Virus record (IMG/VR): IMGVR_UViG_3300042109_000062
Span: 1 to 34,225 of that record
From: a virus
Taxonomy: Duplodnaviria > Caudoviricetes
Direction: 5' to 3' (one strand)
DNA length: 34,225 nucleotides
The stretch's first letter is position 1. Each line of letters opens with the position of its first letter. The translations under genes and the position numbers were made by a program. This document shows positions 20,506 to 34,028 of this stretch, piece after piece. The notes beneath the pieces were generated by a model. The model worked only from the letters and a program-made list of their open reading frames with translations, had not been told where the DNA came from and searched no databases.

Positions 20506-20876
20506 GGCGTGGCTTCCCAGGGTTCGCAATCGTCTCCGTACTCGACGTGCTCGCAAGCCTCGCCCTCCAGCGGTATCCGCATCAGCGAAACGTGCGATGT
20601 CTTCGTGACGCGGCGATCCTCGCGGACCTCGTCAGTCCACGTCGATTGGATACGCAAGCACGCCTGCTGGATCTCGGTGGTTGTCGGATCACGCTGGCGA
20701 GCCGGCTTCTGCCGCAGGCGTCGGTCGTGCCGTGGCGGCAGGCTCCAGACGTGCTTGAGCCTGATGACTTGGTCGCGGGTAATAGTCCACCGCTCGCACA
20801 GTAGCCGCATAGGCATGTGCGTGAGCCAATCTGCGCGGAATGCCGTCAGGCTGATTGTTGCGGTCTGACCTCGCAC
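20502..20876 (-). CDS. Putative HTH protein (GcrA-like N-terminus)
   Basis: AFRADWLTHMPMRLLCERWTITRDQVIRLKHVWSLPPR. Start uncertain (GTG 20876). Confidence 0.55.
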   Translation of the reverse strand: MRGQTATISLTAFRADWLTHMPMRLLCERWTITRDQVIRLKHVWSLPPRHDRRLRQKPARQRDPTTTEIQQACLRIQSTWTDEVREDRRVTKTSHVSLMRIPLEGEACEHVEYGDDCEPWEATP

Positions 20877-21736
20877 GGCTCCGGCATCCAAGACATGAGC
20901 ATCCGCTGCGACGGGTTCAGATACAGGTGCTGCCCGGTCGCCTCGGCGATGCTCTGGTGAAACGGCACATGCTCGCAGTCTGCGGTGCCGTCGTACGTGC
21001 CTCGCAGATAGGCGTCGGTGCGGTAGATGGTCATGCCGCCGAACGCACTCGACACAAGCACTGGAGGCGAGCCGACAGGCGGCAGCCAAGAGAAACCGAA
21101 ACCGCCGTAGCCGTTCTGGTAGGTGTCGTAATAGCAGCGATGCTGCCCGACGCCGCGAAGCGCCCAGAGGTCGTAATGCACCCACAGCGGTCCGTTGCCA
21201 AAGTCGTATTGAAACAGCGACACGCTCGACATGCCGTAGGCACCCGGCATTTCGACAAGCCAACCGATGCCGCTGAGCACGCCCTTCTCGTTCCAGCCGC
21301 CCCATGCGTCGAAGTCCACGACCACCACGTAGTCGGAGTCTGCAGCACACGCTCGCACCCACCGCTGGCAGGCGTCGCGGTACTCGGCGAGAGCCACGGT
21401 GCGCCGGCCGGCGAACTCGGCTGCGTACTGCTCGCGGCCAAGCATCTGGTAGTGGAAGGTGGCCTGATTGTGCTCGCGTGCGAAAGCCGCAAGCACCTCG
21501 AGCGTCTCATCCTCGCAGTCGTTCGACTCAACGTGTAGTTGCCACGTTTTGCACCGTCGCCCGAGGCTCTCGGCTAGGCCGAGGTTCTGCGCCAGCCTTG
21601 CCGCACAGTTGCGAGCGAGCCCGACAATGGCAATCCTGCTGTGACGCAGCCTCTCGGCACCTTCGGCGACACGCTCCTGATACGGCAGCAGGAATGGCTC
21701 GCTTGGAAACCAGAGCTTTGCCGGCATGTCAGGCAT
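20846..21736 (-). CDS. GT-A fold glycosyltransferase (CAP59-like)
   Basis: IAIVGLARN, VESNDCEDET, LAEYRD, YVVVVDFD (DxD), SAFGGMTIY and DCEHVPFH motifs. Confidence 0.75.
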   Translation of the reverse strand: MPDMPAKLWFPSEPFLLPYQERVAEGAERLRHSRIAIVGLARNCAARLAQNLGLAESLGRRCKTWQLHVESNDCEDETLEVLAAFAREHNQATFHYQMLGREQYAAEFAGRRTVALAEYRDACQRWVRACAADSDYVVVVDFDAWGGWNEKGVLSGIGWLVEMPGAYGMSSVSLFQYDFGNGPLWVHYDLWALRGVGQHRCYYDTYQNGYGGFGFSWLPPVGSPPVLVSSAFGGMTIYRTDAYLRGTYDGTADCEHVPFHQSIAEATGQHLYLNPSQRMLMSWMPEPCEVRPQQSA

Positions 21737-22496
21737 ACGGCACCTGCCTCCTCACGCACATGGCACGGCGCACCTCTTGCGGCAGATTCGTGCCGTCCAC
21801 CCACTCGCGGCACCGCTTGTAGAAGTGCTCGCGGCTCTCGCCTTCGCGGCCGATGGCACCGTACCCGGCCGGATCTTGAGTGAAGACCGCACCGAACTGC
21901 GGCACGTACGTGCAGCCATGCATGGCCGCTACCGCGGCGTATCCAATGGCGTCGCTCCACGGACCCATGCACCAGAACTCACGCTCGGCGAGCCACAGCA
22001 GATGCTCTCGGCGGATACCGGCACCTATCCCCGTCTCACTCGGCCACTGCCAATGAACAATGCGGTCGCAGGTGGCCGCCGCGTCGAGCGTCGTCGTCTC
22101 GGTGTATCCGCTGATGACTCCGTGCGTCACGCGGTTAGACGTGTCGCACACGTAGTAGTCGGTGAAGACCACTGCAGCATCAGCGTGGGCCTCGATGTGC
22201 CCGAGGCACCCATGCACTAGGGCGTCGTCGGCACCCATGCACACGACGTGCGTGCCCACCAGCGACGGGTAGACCGTGGCCGAAGCTTCTTGCCAATCAT
22301 CGCTTTTCTCGTCGTGACGCACGTATCGCACGCATGGGTAGTGCTGCTGCACATGCTCTACGACTGCCGCCGTGTCGTCCGTACTTGCGTCGTCAATGAC
22401 GACCACTTCGGCCGGGCCTTGAGCGGCCGCCGAGACAATGGCTCGAGCAAGCGTCTCCGCTCGGTTCCACGTCGGGATGACAACCGACACGCTCAC
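21729..22496 (-). CDS. Glycosyltransferase family 2
   Basis: VSVVIPTWNRA, VVVIDDASTD and MGADD motifs. Confidence 0.88.
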   Translation of the reverse strand: MSVSVVIPTWNRAETLARAIVSAAAQGPAEVVVIDDASTDDTAAVVEHVQQHYPCVRYVRHDEKSDDWQEASATVYPSLVGTHVVCMGADDALVHGCLGHIEAHADAAVVFTDYYVCDTSNRVTHGVISGYTETTTLDAAATCDRIVHWQWPSETGIGAGIRREHLLWLAEREFWCMGPWSDAIGYAAVAAMHGCTYVPQFGAVFTQDPAGYGAIGREGESREHFYKRCREWVDGTNLPQEVRRAMCVRRQVPYA

Positions 22497-23167
22497 AGCT
22501 TGGCTCCCGTGCAGATCGCCAGCCTGTAGTGCGCCATCGGGCCGAAGCCGGTGTGCAGCGTCTCGTCGTTCATGCCAAACAGGTAGACGTTTCGCCAGTA
22601 GTGCAACAGCGTGTCACGCAGCCCCTGTTCGGTCTTGCAGTTAACGTGCCCGGCCTTGCTCACTGCTGATGCGTATGGCTGCGACTCAAGCGACGGGCAG
22701 CCAAAGATCACGGTGCCGTGGACGCCTACGCTCAGTGCCATGTTGCCGAGGAAAAATCCCTCACGCTCGGCCGGCACATGCTCAAGCACGTCGAGAGCAA
22801 ACGCCGCGTCAAACTCCTGCAACAGACGGTCTGGCGGAAACGTCGGCTTCGCCGTCATGTCGTGTTGGCGTACCACGACGTTCTGTTGCTGGCGGCTCCT
22901 GGCGTATTCGACGAATCGCTCGTCAAAATCCACGCAGACAAGCGTGCCGACATCGCGGGCCACCACGGCCGATGCCCAAGCGTCTCCGCAACCGACCTCA
23001 AGCACTCGTTTGCTGCCGGCCAACATCTTGGCCACGAACTTGTACCGGGCAAGCGTAAACCCGAGCCGCTTCGGATCCGTTCGCCATGTGTAGTTTGCCA
23101 TGATGCCGAGCTCGGAGAGCCCGCAGGAGGCTAGGTCGTGCAGCGGCTGATATTGCGTCTCGCTCAT
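22493..23167 (-). CDS. Class I SAM-dependent methyltransferase
   Basis: ARYKFV, VLEVGCGD, CVDFD and FDAAFALDVLEHV motifs, typical of glycan-associated methyltransferases. Confidence 0.88.
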   Translation of the reverse strand: MSETQYQPLHDLASCGLSELGIMANYTWRTDPKRLGFTLARYKFVAKMLAGSKRVLEVGCGDAWASAVVARDVGTLVCVDFDERFVEYARSRQQQNVVVRQHDMTAKPTFPPDRLLQEFDAAFALDVLEHVPAEREGFFLGNMALSVGVHGTVIFGCPSLESQPYASAVSKAGHVNCKTEQGLRDTLLHYWRNVYLFGMNDETLHTGFGPMAHYRLAICTGAKL

Positions 23168-23562
23168 GACACTCGCACAGTCGTGCGCCCCTCCGTGCCA
23201 TACGACTTCTCGACCACAAGCCGGGCCACGCAGGTGTCGTCGCCGACCACGTCCTGCAGAGCGTCCAGCACGGCTTTGCCGATGTTGTCCACGTCGGGCC
23301 TCGGCAGTCGCGGTGCCGTGGCCTTCACGCCTGCCTTGTTCATGTGTGACTTCGGTCTGGCAAATACCGCATCAATCACCACGTTCAGCGGCTCGTCCGT
23401 GGCCGGAACGCTAGCCGCTCGAGCAGCTGCTGCTATTGCTTGGCGATACGCATGCACCGGATGCGTCTTCGGCACGTAGGCGCGAGCAAAGCCGCCGCGA
23501 GTTGAGACACGCGGCCGAGGCTGCGGCACCGGGTCGCCGTCAATGCTGAACGTCCACGACAT
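23164..23562 (-). CDS. rusA: RusA-like Holliday junction resolvase
   Basis: GDPVPQPRPR, RPDVDNIGKAVLDAL and GDDTCV...KSYG motifs. Confidence 0.9.
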   Translation of the reverse strand: MSWTFSIDGDPVPQPRPRVSTRGGFARAYVPKTHPVHAYRQAIAAAARAASVPATDEPLNVVIDAVFARPKSHMNKAGVKATAPRLPRPDVDNIGKAVLDALQDVVGDDTCVARLVVEKSYGTEGRTTVRVS

Positions 23563-24319
23563 GCTCTGACGGTAGCGGCGTAGTCAACTCGCCGGTCGTC
23601 GTCTCGGAGATCCAGCCAATGTAGTCGCCCACTCGCGTGTGGCCGCTTTCCTGCCCGGTCGTGCTGAGCACCTGGCCTTTGCCGTCCCGCATGACTATGG
23701 AGTGAATACCGGCAAGCCGACCGCGCACAAGCATCGCACCGCCGCTGTCGCCTGGTGCTGTCAGGATCTCGCGAGCCGACGTGCCGGCACACCCGTGGCA
23801 GATCCATAGGCTCCGGTCACGCCTGCAGATCGTGTTGGTTCCGGCCCGCCGCTCGCCATCAATGGTGTCGTAGCCGGTCGTTAGCGGCCCCGTCGCACCG
23901 TAGCCGACAATCACCACGTCGTCGCCGATGGCCTCTGTGCCGTCCGCCAGCAGCGGGTACGCCGCAAACCCTAGCGGCTCGTCGCAACGCAAAAGGGCCA
24001 GGTCGTGCTCGCCCATCATGGCGTGGCGAAAGCCGGGGTGCACAATTACGCGGCCTACAATCCACGTACGGTCGCCGAGATGGACGCTAGCCTGCTTGGC
24101 GTCATGCACGACGTGAGCGGCCGTAAGCAGCCACTGGTCGCTGATGGCCACGGCAGACCCGCAGCCAAGCTCTCCTTCGTGGTTCTCGGCGTAGAGCTTG
24201 AGCACGTAGCCGTGCTGGTCGCCGGCCTCAAGGTAGCGGGCGTCGTCGATTGCCGGGTCTGTCGTGCCCGCGAAGGCCGACCCGCACAAACACAGAAGAA
24301 TCAGCAGGCGTCGCCCCAT
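23540..24319 (-). CDS. Secreted trypsin-like (S1) serine protease
   Basis: Signal-peptide-like N-terminus and catalytic triad motifs LTAAHV, DLALL and GDSGG. Confidence 0.9.
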   Translation of the reverse strand: MGRRLLILLCLCGSAFAGTTDPAIDDARYLEAGDQHGYVLKLYAENHEGELGCGSAVAISDQWLLTAAHVVHDAKQASVHLGDRTWIVGRVIVHPGFRHAMMGEHDLALLRCDEPLGFAAYPLLADGTEAIGDDVVIVGYGATGPLTTGYDTIDGERRAGTNTICRRDRSLWICHGCAGTSAREILTAPGDSGGAMLVRGRLAGIHSIVMRDGKGQVLSTTGQESGHTRVGDYIGWISETTTGELTTPLPSEHVVDVQH

Positions 24320-24325
24320 GCACGG

Positions 24326-24356
24326 ATAATGGCATCCGTGTCACGCTGTCTTGCAG
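24326..24356 (-). promoter_or_regulatory. Putative late promoter CTGCAAG-N18-CATTAT (leaderless protease transcript)
   Basis: Copy of the four-copy motif. The ATG lies 6 nt after the -10-like hexamer. Confidence 0.62.
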
Positions 24357-24428
24357 CGGCGTTACGAAGGCTGCGTAGCAGCGGCATTGCGAGCGGCGCG
24401 GCCGCGTCGTGCGAAAGCGTAGGAAGTT

Positions 24429-24477
24429 ATGCAGCGGATGGTGCTGCTATGGGAAACAACAGAAACAATGGTTCTCT
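24429..24477 (+). repeat. Degenerate attC-like site 1
   Basis: Remnant left arm ATGCAGCGGA (24429-24438) and R' core GTTCTCT (24471-24477). Confidence 0.45.
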
Positions 24478-24480
24478 GCA

Positions 24481-25305
24481 CTACGCCACGCCAATCGGTA
24501 GCGCCTGTTGTGCCAACCGTTTCCGGCTGATCTCGACGTACTCCGGGTTCACTTCGATCCCGATGAATCGCCGCCCCGTCTCGCGGGCCATCTTCGCCGT
24601 CGTGCCGCTGCCACTGAACGGGTCGAGCACAACGTCGCCGGGGTTGCTCCATGAGAGGATGTGATCGCGGGCTAGGGCTTCTGGGAATGGCGCAGGATGT
24701 TCGTTTCCATCTCCTCCTACGTTCATTTGCCAGACGTTTGTGCGAAGCCCAAAAGCGGGTGTGATGCCAGATCCGGTTGCCCTCGCTCCGTTTTTCACGC
24801 ATCGACCTCCAGCCGTTTTCCGAAAGACCTTGCCAGCCGTTGCATTTGGGCGATCGGTTATCCGGTTCACGGTCGCGGGCAGTCCATTTGCAAACACGAA
24901 CATAAACTCCGCCGATTGCGGATATGCAAACTTGCTTCCATTTGCACCCTTTGGCGGCTTGTTCCAAATCATCGTGTCCAAAAGACGCAAGCCGATGCTC
25001 TTGAAGTGCAACGCCTGCCGATAGCTCGCGCCAGATTCGTCGGCGTCTTTCGTAGAGTCCGCCACGTTCCACACGATCACCCCGCCCGGCTTGAGCAGCC
25101 GCTTGAGATTCCACGCCACCCCGTAGAAATCCCACGAGTGGCCGCCGTAGGTACGGAGGTCGTCGTATGGCGGGCTCGTCACAACGAGGTCAATCGACTC
25201 GCTCGGCATCTGCCGCATTACATCGCAGTTGTCGCCGCAGATGATTTGGTCAAGCGGGAGAGAACCAGCCGATGCAACGGACGGCCCTGCTACGTCATGT
25301 GTCAT
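24481..25305 (-). CDS. Orphan DNA amino-methyltransferase, beta class (SPPY, probably N4-cytosine)
   Basis: IICGD, DLVVTSPPY, HPAPFP, VLDPFSGSGTT and FIGIE motifs. The start codon lies within the attC-like site. Confidence 0.93.
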   Translation of the reverse strand: MTHDVAGPSVASAGSLPLDQIICGDNCDVMRQMPSESIDLVVTSPPYDDLRTYGGHSWDFYGVAWNLKRLLKPGGVIVWNVADSTKDADESGASYRQALHFKSIGLRLLDTMIWNKPPKGANGSKFAYPQSAEFMFVFANGLPATVNRITDRPNATAGKVFRKTAGGRCVKNGARATGSGITPAFGLRTNVWQMNVGGDGNEHPAPFPEALARDHILSWSNPGDVVLDPFSGSGTTAKMARETGRRFIGIEVNPEYVEISRKRLAQQALPIGVA

Positions 25306-25347
25306 GGTGAGTTTTCCGGTGGCCGCCGTTGATCTTCCGTGTTCTGA
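25259..25347 (+). repeat. Intact integron attC-like recombination site 2
   Basis: AGAGAAC-CAGCCG-AT(G)CAACGG(A)CGGCC ... GGCCGCCGTTGAT-CTTCCGT-GTTCTGA: AAC/GTT cores, unpaired spacer, and L boxes with two extrahelical bases. Confidence 0.8.
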
Positions 25348-25348
25348 T

Positions 25349-25645
25349 CTACGCAACCTCTGCTAACTTCGCCCGCAGAACCCGGATGCACTCGTCGTTC
25401 TCTTCGTTGCTCGCCGGGTCGCTACGCTCGCTGGCGTTGCTCTCGGCAATGGCGAGTTCTTGCCGCAAGATTTCGACGGCTGCGGCCTTCTTCATCTCTG
25501 CGTCACGCAGCGTCCGCAAGAACGGCAGCGCAGCCTCTACGAGCGCGTGCATGGCACCGCCCCTTGCGTGCCAATCGCCGCGGGTCGTCTCCTTCTCTGC
25601 CAGCGTGATGATTGCGTCCAGTTCCCTGATGTCGATCATCTCCAA
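25349..25645 (-). CDS. Hypothetical protein (98 aa) in attC-bounded cassette
   Basis: TAAGGAG SD before a TTG start. Stop is adjacent to the attC-like R' box. Confidence 0.68.
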   Translation of the reverse strand: MEMIDIRELDAIITLAEKETTRGDWHARGGAMHALVEAALPFLRTLRDAEMKKAAAVEILRQELAIAESNASERSDPASNEENDECIRVLRAKLAEVA

Positions 25646-25653
25646 TGCTCCTT

Positions 25654-25725
25654 ATCAGGACCACGCGATGCCGTCTGCGGAATTGTAAGTCAGCGGTCGC
25701 GGGCCGCTTATCCTGCGTGTTCTGG
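25654..25725 (+). repeat. Partly degenerate attC-like site 3
   Basis: ATCAGGAC-CACGCG-ATG ... GGGCCGCTTAT-CCTGCGT-GTTCTGG. Right arm conserved, left arm damaged. Confidence 0.6.
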
Positions 25726-25794
25726 CTATCTACTAGCCACTTACTAACTTCCGAATTTTTTTATATTTGCCGCTTACCAGATTACGGCGACGGT

Positions 25795-25810
25795 ATCGCT
25801 GGCGTTCTTA
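25795..25810 (+). repeat. attC-like right half-site 4
   Basis: AT-CGCTGGC-GTTCTTA with the same spacing as sites 2 and 3. Overlaps the upstream gene's stop codon. Confidence 0.5.
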
Positions 25811-26011
25811 GGCGAGCCCAGCCATGTTGCGAGCCTGTCGCAGAATCTCGTCGTGTAGTGCCCGCTCGTTTTCCCACGCCACCTTCCAACCATCACGCTC
25901 AATCCGCAACCGCTCGATCTCGCCAGCCGCCTCCGCGAGCAGCGCCGAGCGGTCCAGCGCACGGCACGCTTTGACGCTCTCGCGGAGACGCTGGACAAGG
26001 TCGTCGCTCAT
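25808..26011 (-). CDS. Hypothetical protein (67 aa)
   Basis: MSDDLVQRLR...EAAGEIERLR pattern, common in small phage early proteins. ATGA overlap. Confidence 0.7.
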   Translation of the reverse strand: MSDDLVQRLRESVKACRALDRSALLAEAAGEIERLRIERDGWKVAWENERALHDEILRQARNMAGLA

Positions 26012-26394
26012 GACCTGGCCCCTTGCGGCAAGTATTCGCCTCGACGCCACGCACTCACCTTGCCGATGGTCGTGTTGTCTCTCTCGCACCGCCGCTGCTC
26101 GTAGTGCCGCTCGCGACACTCTCGTGCTCGGGCTTCCACCCAAGGCGACAACGCCAAACTATCCAGCGACGCCGCGTCATCCTCTGGCGACGGCGGCGGC
26201 GGCTCCTGCGAGACAGGCACGTAGTCAATCTTCCGCCTCGGCAGCTGATACCGCTGAGCCCAGGTGTAAATCGTGCTTGTTGACACCTTGAACCGCACAG
26301 CGATCTCCGCTTTTGTGCGACCCTCTGCCCACATCGCAAACAACGTCGCCACGTCGCCGCCAGTGTGGTGATTCATCTTCGACTTCGCAGGCAT
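26008..26394 (-). CDS. HTH protein (GcrA-like N-terminus)
   Basis: LFAMWAEGRTKAEIAVRFKVSTSTIYTWAQRYQLPRR. TGATG overlap with dnaN. Confidence 0.72.
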   Translation of the reverse strand: MPAKSKMNHHTGGDVATLFAMWAEGRTKAEIAVRFKVSTSTIYTWAQRYQLPRRKIDYVPVSQEPPPPSPEDDAASLDSLALSPWVEARARECRERHYEQRRCERDNTTIGKVSAWRRGEYLPQGARS

Positions 26395-33110: not shown

Positions 33111-34028
33111 ATGCCGATGCCGATGCGAGAACTACTCGAGCGATACGCCCTGTTACGCGGTCTGAAAGGCAAGACGGTCAAGCTCTACGAAATGCTCCTA
33201 GACCGCCTACAAGCGTTCCTAGGACACGAGCCGACTGCGGCCGACCTCGATGACCTAGTCATCAGCCGCTACCTCCGGTGGCGAGCAGAGACGCCTGGCT
33301 GGCGTGGTCGGCTGCCCAGTGCGGCCAGCGTCCGCAAGGACCGCGTGATGCTGGCCGCGATCTGGACCTACGCGGCCCGCAAGAAGATCGCCGCCGAGTT
33401 TCCCGAGCTCCCAAAGGTCAAGGTTCCCAAGCGCCTGCCTACCGGCCGCGCCTACACAGCAGAAGACGTGTCCAGACTGATACGTGCCGCTCGGCATCGC
33501 AGGGGGCTAGTAGGCGGCCTGCCGTCCGCCTGGTGGTGGCAGACCATCCTCTACGCCATCTACTGCACTGGCGAGCGTCTTGAGGCCACCATGTCGCTCA
33601 GGTGGGCCGACGTGGATCTAGAGCGGTGTCGGGTCGTTTTTCGAGGCGAGCACCGCAAGGGCGGCACCAGAGACATTGAGCGGCAGATTACGCCGCAGCT
33701 GGCCGCCATGATGGCCCTGCACCGCCGCAGCCCTGATGACCTAGTTTGGCCTTGGGATCGACGCAGCCGCTGCCAGTGGGCTTCTCTCAGGATCCTGTGC
33801 CGGATAGCCGGCGTGCAGTACCGAGGATTCCACGGCCTGCGTCGGACGGCCGCGAGTTACGCCGCCCTAGCCGGCGGAACGGCGGCAGCCACGCAGCTGC
33901 TCGACCATTCGGACCCTAATCTCCAAAAAGTTTACGTGGACCCGCTCATTTGCCCTACGGACTCCAGCAGCATCGCCGGACTGCCACCGCTAGACCTTGG
34001 CGATCACGGGCCAGGCAAGCCTCGCTGA
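33111..34028 (+). CDS. int: Tyrosine recombinase / phage integrase
   Basis: Catalytic R (TGER), K (HRKGG), HxxR (FHGLRR), H (LLDHS) and Y (KVY) residues, with a core-binding N-domain. Confidence 0.92.
   Translation: MPMPMRELLERYALLRGLKGKTVKLYEMLLDRLQAFLGHEPTAADLDDLVISRYLRWRAETPGWRGRLPSAASVRKDRVMLAAIWTYAARKKIAAEFPELPKVKVPKRLPTGRAYTAEDVSRLIRAARHRRGLVGGLPSAWWWQTILYAIYCTGERLEATMSLRWADVDLERCRVVFRGEHRKGGTRDIERQITPQLAAMMALHRRSPDDLVWPWDRRSRCQWASLRILCRIAGVQYRGFHGLRRTAASYAALAGGTAAATQLLDHSDPNLQKVYVDPLICPTDSSSIAGLPPLDLGDHGPGKPR

Follow-up and report, generated by a model that had tools for sequence, protein, structure and literature searches.

Background

The question raised by this locus is how a phage without an integron integrase (IntI) of its own could carry integron-like gene cassettes and exchange them. 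The DNA concerned, referred to below as the window, is the whole of a linear virus record of the IMG/VR type, 34,225 bp long and estimated to be 85% complete; the sequencing runs that hold this stretch are freshwater or lake metagenomes. The initial annotation had described an inverted array of four attC sites and had proposed that the phage uses attC recombination, probably by an IntI supplied in trans by the host, as a hotspot for gene swapping. This overall interpretation is supported, the attC match, the switches of gene content at G|TT, the reversal of the genes and the distribution of IntI all being as predicted: the locus is very probably an integron platform without an integrase, residing in a temperate phage, the cassettes of which are likely moved at G|TT by the chromosomal IntI of the host.

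Gene setting of the cassette region

On the structural side of the window, Pfam identifies terminase, portal, prohead protease, capsid, head-tail and tail genes; the other genes include RecT (PF03837), a LexA-like repressor, DUF1376, a sliding clamp, RusA (PF05866) and glycosyltransferases, and a tyrosine integrase (PF00589) is encoded at 33111-34028. By this gene set, the window belongs to a temperate tailed phage. The cassette region is flanked by an HTH gene and a trypsin-like gene, everything here being encoded on the minus strand, and may be assigned to the early operon on the strength of its gene content. A scan of 24250-26100 found one promoter and one terminator, compared with 0.6 and 2.1 by chance; these counts being close to chance, no promoter is claimed. 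An Rfam search of the window gave no match at E values up to 5. Between the attI site and the packaging genes (20846-24319) are two glycosyltransferases, a SAM methyltransferase, RusA and the trypsin-like protease, which has a hydrophobic stretch at its N-terminus and takes the place of another small gene that most relatives have here.

The locus consists of one attI, one live methyltransferase cassette and two locked cassettes (Table 1). The window has one intact attC, not the four first counted, and two broken ones, with the genes on the attC bottom strand. The orientation of these genes on the minus strand, opposite to that of normal cassettes, had been recognized correctly, as had the position of the stop codons, which abut or overlap R boxes (24481-83, 25349-51 and 25808-10).

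Table 1. Features of the cassette region, in window coordinates
Feature	Position	Strand	Basis or remark
attI-type entry site	24426..24477	+	host attI matrices
Cassette 1, intact	24472..25341	+	from attI crossover TT to the G of its own attC; carries DNA methyltransferase gene
N6/N4 DNA methyltransferase gene, 274 aa	24481..25305	-	PF01555, E 2.5e-41; phrog_67, E 1.5e-66
Intact attC, Planctomycete type	25259..25347	+	89 nt; geometry detector, covariance model
Cassette 2, locked	25342..25719	+	96-98-aa gene, broken attC
96-98-aa gene, unknown family	25349-25645	-	no Pfam, NCBIfam or PHROG match
Broken attC	25655..25725	+	aligned with intact site L036:4998-5084
Cassette 3, stump	25720..25804	+	first 75 nt of a cassette fused to an attC right arm
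Last R' box, GTTCTTA	25804..25810	+	overlaps stop codon of resident 67-aa gene
Resident 67-aa gene	25808-26011	-	stop codon overlapped by last R' box

The intact attC site and the methyltransferase cassette

The site at 25259-25347 has the full attC architecture attributed to it, with boxes, spacers and extrahelical bases all present. On the left, R'' (AGAGAAC, 25259-65) is separated by a 5-nt spacer from L'' (GATGCAAC, 25271-78); on the right, L' (GTTGATC, 25328-34) is separated by a 6-nt spacer from R' (GTTCTGA, 25341-47). The L boxes pair at 7/7 positions, and G25274 and A25281 are extrahelical on the top (+) strand with six pairs between them. The bottom strand, which is the recombining strand, is the gene-sense strand, and its first extrahelical base is C and its last T. 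The AAC and GTT ends, the pairing of the L boxes, the 5-6-nt spacers and the length agree with the attC definitions (boxes, spacers, length of 57-141) in the accessible text of PMC5027507. The R''-L''-L'-R' hairpin, the crossover at AAC of the bottom strand, the spacers, the T as last extrahelical base and the 6-bp stem are likewise those of classical cassettes, as far as these are described in the accessible parts of PMC5027507 and PMC4889954. The first extrahelical base is C instead of the bottom-strand G that the former source gives as usual, not required; C occupies this position in 185 of 193 sites in viral loci and the window, and in most Planctomycete host sites too.

A detector relying on geometry only found this site and no other in 34 kb, compared with 0.2 and 0.03 sites per shuffled window (two versions, 30 shuffles each). 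The expectation that an attC model would recognize the site was borne out by our own covariance model, built from 40 bacterial sites on Planctomycete-rich genome contigs, which had its only match in the window at 25259-25347 (51.5 bits, E 1.3e-10, the window being among 17 sources searched with the model). Raw folding energy was unremarkable in comparison with shuffled sequences (z of -1.05 for the top strand and -1.40 for the bottom) and was therefore not used as evidence; constrained folding gave a probability of 0.77 that the bottom strand pairs both its R and its L boxes.

The ends of the methyltransferase unit are complementary, as had been claimed: the start of cassette 1 (GTTCTCT) complements the R'' of its own attC at 7/7 positions, as in a unit that can be circularized. 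A cassette 85-88% identical to this one lies directly behind attI in L027, a 5.2-kb locus with no likeness to the window beyond this copy. The start codon of the methyltransferase is probably the ATG at 25303-05, to judge from the conserved N-terminus and from relatives; this ATG falls within the attC loop, the left arm of the attC being spanned by the first 15 codons. The ribosome site before it reads GGAAAA in the window, which has TT at 25313-25314 of the plus strand where related sites in the sequencing runs show CC; translation of the methyltransferase may be weaker with the window's version.

The attI-type entry site

The GTTCTCT at 24471 had been taken for a right end of the attC type, and proves to be part of an attI-type site instead. 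An attC at this position is ruled out, there being no left arm, no hairpin and no model match. Two GTTAT-like repeats, at 24426 and 24446, precede an L box (ACAGAAA, 24459-65), a 5-nt spacer and the crossover G|TT at 24471/24472; the site stands at the top-strand 5' end of the array, and its R box is completed by cassette 1.

Host attI sites were assigned by position and core match, which yielded a site in 18 of 31 intI loci and none in the other 13. With a matrix made from 13 distinct host attI sequences, 24471 ranked first among 68,394 window positions (22.3 bits; next score 9.9, best of 20 shuffles 14.5), and when host sites were left out in turn, 12 of the 13 scored 22-37 bits, with one outlier at -31. 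Since half of the loci behind this matrix (9/18) had been picked by a motif written after the phage sites had been seen, the matrix was rebuilt from eight loci found by a 7/7 complement to the R'' of the first cassette (seven sites, GTT omitted); 24471 again ranked first, of 68,392 positions, with 17.8 bits compared with a shuffle maximum of 16.6, and GTTCTCT follows it. By these matrices the site resembles the attI found beside a cognate intI, the host sites being themselves positional assignments. The presence of attI, which the initial annotation had missed, would explain how cassettes enter.

Related loci, too, have a conserved site that forms no hairpin at the gene-distal end of their variable region. 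Within 1.5 kb upstream of the array, a match to the host matrix above 15 bits was found on the attC strand in 25 of 47 phage arrays and on the other strand in one; in 22 of the 47, no match was found within that distance.

Broken sites of cassettes 2 and 3

The right ends at 25719 and 25804, both presented earlier as attC sites, are not live: both are broken, neither matches the covariance model, and an intact R'' and L'' are present at neither 25655-25725 nor 25804. In the site of cassette 2, R'' reads TCAGGAC, its AAC changed to GAC, and a 16-nt deletion between two copies of CGCGATG removed most of L''; the right arm and R' are still present (G at 25719). The ends of the unit with the 98-aa gene are complementary at 7/8 positions, as reported earlier, and the mismatch lies inside AAC. 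The same sequence of 25655-25725 recurs in L001 and in contigs of runs X1, X5 and X6, and is therefore no assembly slip. The stump of cassette 3 originated by deletion of about 290 nt at 25794/25795: its remnant (25720-25794) matches, at 92% identity over 76 nt, the beginning of a 329-nt cassette that is intact in L006 and has an R'' (CCAGAAC) complementary to GTTCTGG, and L129 contains both sides of the deletion. The last R' of L002 is at the same place as the box at 25804 of the window. Having lost their attC, cassettes 2 and 3 are likely fixed genes.

The 98-aa gene has 16 homologues, all unnamed or hypothetical. Those at L018:2336-2458 and L024:2275-2556 lie outside arrays, among the normal early genes and without an adjoining attC, and suggest that resident phage genes are the source of cassettes. 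A family that is both an ordinary phage gene and a cassette, with attC at the 5' end of the gene and not at the 3' end, offers a handle on cassette genesis.

The parent of the stump occurs in three viral contigs (L006:6088-6422, L129:12-303 and L076:4717-4998) and contains a strongly folding stretch of about 190 nt, with no convincing gene and no Rfam family; one base pair is changed on both sides between L006 and L076, and the L076 copy includes a tRNA-like piece scoring 29.4 bits, below the cut-off. An ARAGORN scan for tRNA made three weak calls in 268 sequences, none of them in the intact copies. This parent cassette is possibly an unnamed RNA carried as a cassette, of which the window has lost the folded core.

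Breakpoints between strains

A query with the sliding clamp retrieved 24 related loci. One contig, L001 (the same contig as L152, and counted once), matches the window without a mismatch over the 8,885 bp from 34225 to 25341; the two first differ at 25340, immediately before G|TT, and from there L001 has another attC and another methyltransferase gene until it ends 143 nt beyond the breakpoint. Even if the contig were a join of two phages by way of cassette 2, this junction exists in nature. In runs X1 and X5, contigs start exactly at 25341, which is what a branch point would produce, and contigs of X2, X3, X12 and X13 match from 25325 with five differences and join cassette 2 to a third attC. 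L002 has both flanks in common with the window, with four other cassettes between them and the likeness resuming at 24475; L011 and L012 diverge right after the AAC of a site; and L014 has an attI-type site without an attC before it. Gene content thus switches exactly at G|TT in relatives, as predicted in the initial annotation: at 25340 in L001 and at AAC in L011 and L012.

These comparisons show that units are exchanged at the G|TT of R', with the attC body travelling with the gene on its left, as recombination of the bottom strand would have it. Because the attC body changes together with that gene, the crossover falls in R', which implies use of the bottom strand as in bacteria; the reversal is then one of the gene and not of the choice of strand. 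A circular junction joining 25341 to 24472 was found in none of the assembled contigs of 8 of the 24 listed runs, assembled contigs being prone to drop rare forms; the runs that hold the stretch best may be the window's own source.

A dead relic, that is, a piece of host integron captured once and now decaying and immobile, would likewise have broken attC sites (two of three here), a cassette reduced to a stump and no intI. Such a history is nonetheless very unlikely for a locus in which 25341 has three different neighbours in otherwise identical DNA, the score of attI falls in the 22-37 bits of all but one of the host sites, and the cargo is phage-like (DUF551, methyltransferases) and reversed, unlike host cargo.

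Cassettes of related phages and of bacteria

A 20-letter pattern retrieved at least 142 viral loci (about 230 estimated). Counts were made on 138 distinct cassettes from 54 viral loci and on 128 cassettes from 32 loci of the genome collection; the contigs having been picked by pattern and being related, these counts are not independent and describe a group. All four variable core bases were complementary between a cassette's own ends in 102 of the 138 phage cassettes, compared with 20 of 138 when the comparison was made within sites (2000 permutations: mean 20.8, maximum 34). Complementarity therefore follows the cassette and not the site, and it was found in 96 of the 128 cassettes of bacterial arrays as well.

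Reversed genes are the rule in related phages, as had been suspected from the window: the longest ORF lies on the bottom strand in 116 of the 138 cassettes, on the top strand in 6, and is unclear in 16, the corresponding numbers for the 128 bacterial cassettes being 29, 82 and 17. By a ribosome-site rule, 86 of 101 clean phage cassettes had a gene on the bottom strand only, 5 on both, none on the top only, and 10 on neither; the same rule gave no orientation for 84 bacterial cassettes (13 top, 10 bottom, 61 none) and was replaced for these by Pfam scans, in which 15 of 80 top-strand ORFs and 1 of 84 bottom-strand ORFs had a match. Pfam matches were found for 30 of the 116 bottom-strand phage genes (20 DUF551, 6 DNA methyltransferases and 4 others). 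A ribosome site together with an ATG is present in the attC loop on the bottom strand at 105 of 154 phage sites and on the top strand at none, compared with 9 and 4, respectively, of 161 bacterial sites. Median cassette length is 302 nt in phages vs 497 nt in bacteria. Three genome-collection loci with phage-like arrays (L213, L241 and L269) are within the bacterial counts of complementarity, ORF strand and loop ATG, are kept separate in the ribosome-site rule, and are excluded from the bacterial Pfam scans.

The sites occur in near-identical families, often with a ribosome site and ATG, and the window encodes both RecT and RusA, so that the hairpins might be no more than repeated translation-start elements through which homologous recombination shuffles genes with no part for IntI. 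Little probability is given to this explanation: the divergence between the window and L001 starts with the first base to the left of G|TT and extends throughout their attC bodies, and homologous exchange leaves unexplained both the complementarity of cassette ends (102/138) and a host-type attI without homology to attC. Homologous recombination can still spread junctions that already exist.

The integron integrase and the host

The site-specific exchange favoured here calls for an enzyme, and the claim that the phage has no IntI of its own held. The window's tyrosine integrase scores 11.7 bits with the IntI model TIGR02249 (cut-off 265), has no IntI match in NCBIfam, matches phrog_1, and aligns with host IntI in one 91-residue match at 35%. 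IntI was found in none of 30 related phage records, a set that includes the complete L002 and in which 17 records are at least 90% complete, and 25 of the 30 array-bearing or related records have no IntI candidate at all; no intI stands beside the array in the window (85% complete) or in the complete L002. That the phage's PF00589 integrase, present as it is, or the IntI of a co-infecting phage does the recombining in place of the host's chromosomal enzyme therefore has only a slight chance of being right, given this distance from IntI, its absence from the 30 records, and an attI that matches the chromosomal attI of the host.

IntI was expected in the host, and 42 of the 121 genomes of the likely host family (the Pirellulales family of genome G001) encode a protein above the TIGR02249 cut-off. 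The family has IntI, a matching attI and the same attC type. A host among the Pirellulales is likely, judging from the likeness of the sites and from a phage-like 42.8-kb contig (G119:C24; L339-L341) binned with a genome of that family that has IntI; this contig encodes an integrase 69% identical to the window's and carries the same reversed sites, with attC matches at both of its ends. A prophage junction that would fix the host was looked for and not found. The Pirellulales attI lies downstream of intI on the same strand and is followed by the cassettes, and none was found upstream of intI in four loci. In the loci read (L290-L293 and L300-L328), intI points towards attI and the array, and it follows a gene for an ABC transporter ATPase; in classical integrons intI mostly points away from the array, according to the accessible text of PMC4889954.

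On one host contig (G108:C92; L342:1-870), intI and attI are immediately followed by a reversed DUF551 cassette that has attC sites of the phage type. The first two cassettes of this contig are reversed and of phage type, and one of its attC sites is 96% identical to a site in L055; a reversed phage-type first cassette was seen in 1 of the 17 first cassettes looked at. By its neighbours, which include ORFs named from their translations as an ABC transporter ATPase, a sulfurtransferase, a ROK-family protein and other housekeeping types, this is a chromosomal integron. The capture of phage cassettes by it, represented by one metagenome-assembled contig, is a lead, not proof.

Proposed mechanism

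Host IntI would act in trans, during lysogeny or infection. It would fold the bottom strand of attC, cut it and link it to double-stranded attI at AAC/GTT, the mechanism described in the accessible text of PMC5027507. Recombination of attI with attC would excise 24472-25341 as a circle of 870 nt, bringing attI next to cassette 2, and a new circle entering the emptied slot would produce the state seen in L001. The cassette genes would be read by transcription that proceeds from the phage's replication genes to attI; reversed cassettes would then all be expressed and forward ones silenced, and the most recent arrival would come at the end of the transcript instead of at its beginning. A ribosome site and start codon are often provided by the attC loop, so that a cassette brings its own translation start. 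The window, with one attI and one attC 870 nt apart, offers a clean substrate pair.

Reversal might act as a filter, the most speculative part of this scheme: phage transcription would run antisense to a forward host cassette inserted at the phage attI, and phage cassettes might likewise be antisense within the host array. One could also speculate that, with the genes read in the direction of replication, the bottom strand becomes the template of the lagging strand, an arrangement that raises recombination according to the accessible text of PMC5371416. A broader proposal, tentative and held with slightly less than even confidence, is that a mirror-image pool of Planctomycete phage cassettes runs on host IntI by way of a copied host attI, that reversal keeps this pool and that of the host apart although both depend on one enzyme, and that the hairpin doubles as translation start and N-terminal peptide. 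If so, host cassettes, including anti-phage ones, would be silent in the phage and phage cassettes silent in the host array, and the host chromosome could still store phage cassettes.

Comparison with known systems

Clusters of attC sites in phages are already known. Qi et al. (2023; PMC9892861) described phage CALINs and integrons with attC clusters and DNA methyltransferase cargo, and five of six phage attC sites tested recombined with IntI1. These CALINs resemble the window in having attC in phage DNA without intI, and methyltransferases as cargo. TJE1 and PH101 have the typical orientation, and P12002L has divergent sites; the sole attI before a CALIN in that study is in a cryptic Shewanella prophage, also with intI. 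The accessible text of Qi et al. mentions neither a systematic reversal nor start codons within attC, nor any pair of strains that diverge at G|TT, and its supplement has no match to a Planctomycete phage. By the definition of a CALIN in the accessible part of PMC4889954 (at least two attC sites, no intI nearby), L002 with its four sites is one and the window with its single intact attC is not: the window works like an integron and is not a complete integron. The locus contributes a pair of strains that diverge from the crossover base onwards, a match to attI derived from the host, and a reversed cassette in a host integron. In titles and abstracts, with subscription papers thinly covered, no phage attI without intI and no systematically reversed phage cassettes were found.

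Chromosomal integrons of Pirellulales and other Planctomycetes, for which a Planctomycetes attC model is named in the accessible text of PMC8352920, are like those of the phages in attC geometry, in the extra G and A of the top strand, in attI consensus and in end complementarity. They differ in having intI and forward genes, whereas the cargo of the phages is phage-type and their cassettes are shorter. In classical integrons, as the accessible parts of PMC5027507 and PMC4889954 describe them, the choice of strand points genes away from attI and Pc, and the opposite orientation silences them; the phage cassettes, unlike these, have genes on the attC bottom strand that point towards attI as a rule.

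Integrons are seen as bacterial devices, and have lately been viewed as stores of anti-phage genes (accessible text of 10.1101/2024.07.02.601686); in the present case they appear to serve a phage, through the same enzyme and entry site, for accessory genes of its own. This would provide a site-specific route for part of the mosaicism of phage early regions. The accessory cargo of the phages includes DNA methyltransferases that would counter restriction.

A reversed cassette encoding a Lar-family (restriction alleviation) protein, with its start inside attC, was observed at L193:1625-1966, on a 4.2-kb contig where it lies within an array of bacterial-type sites.
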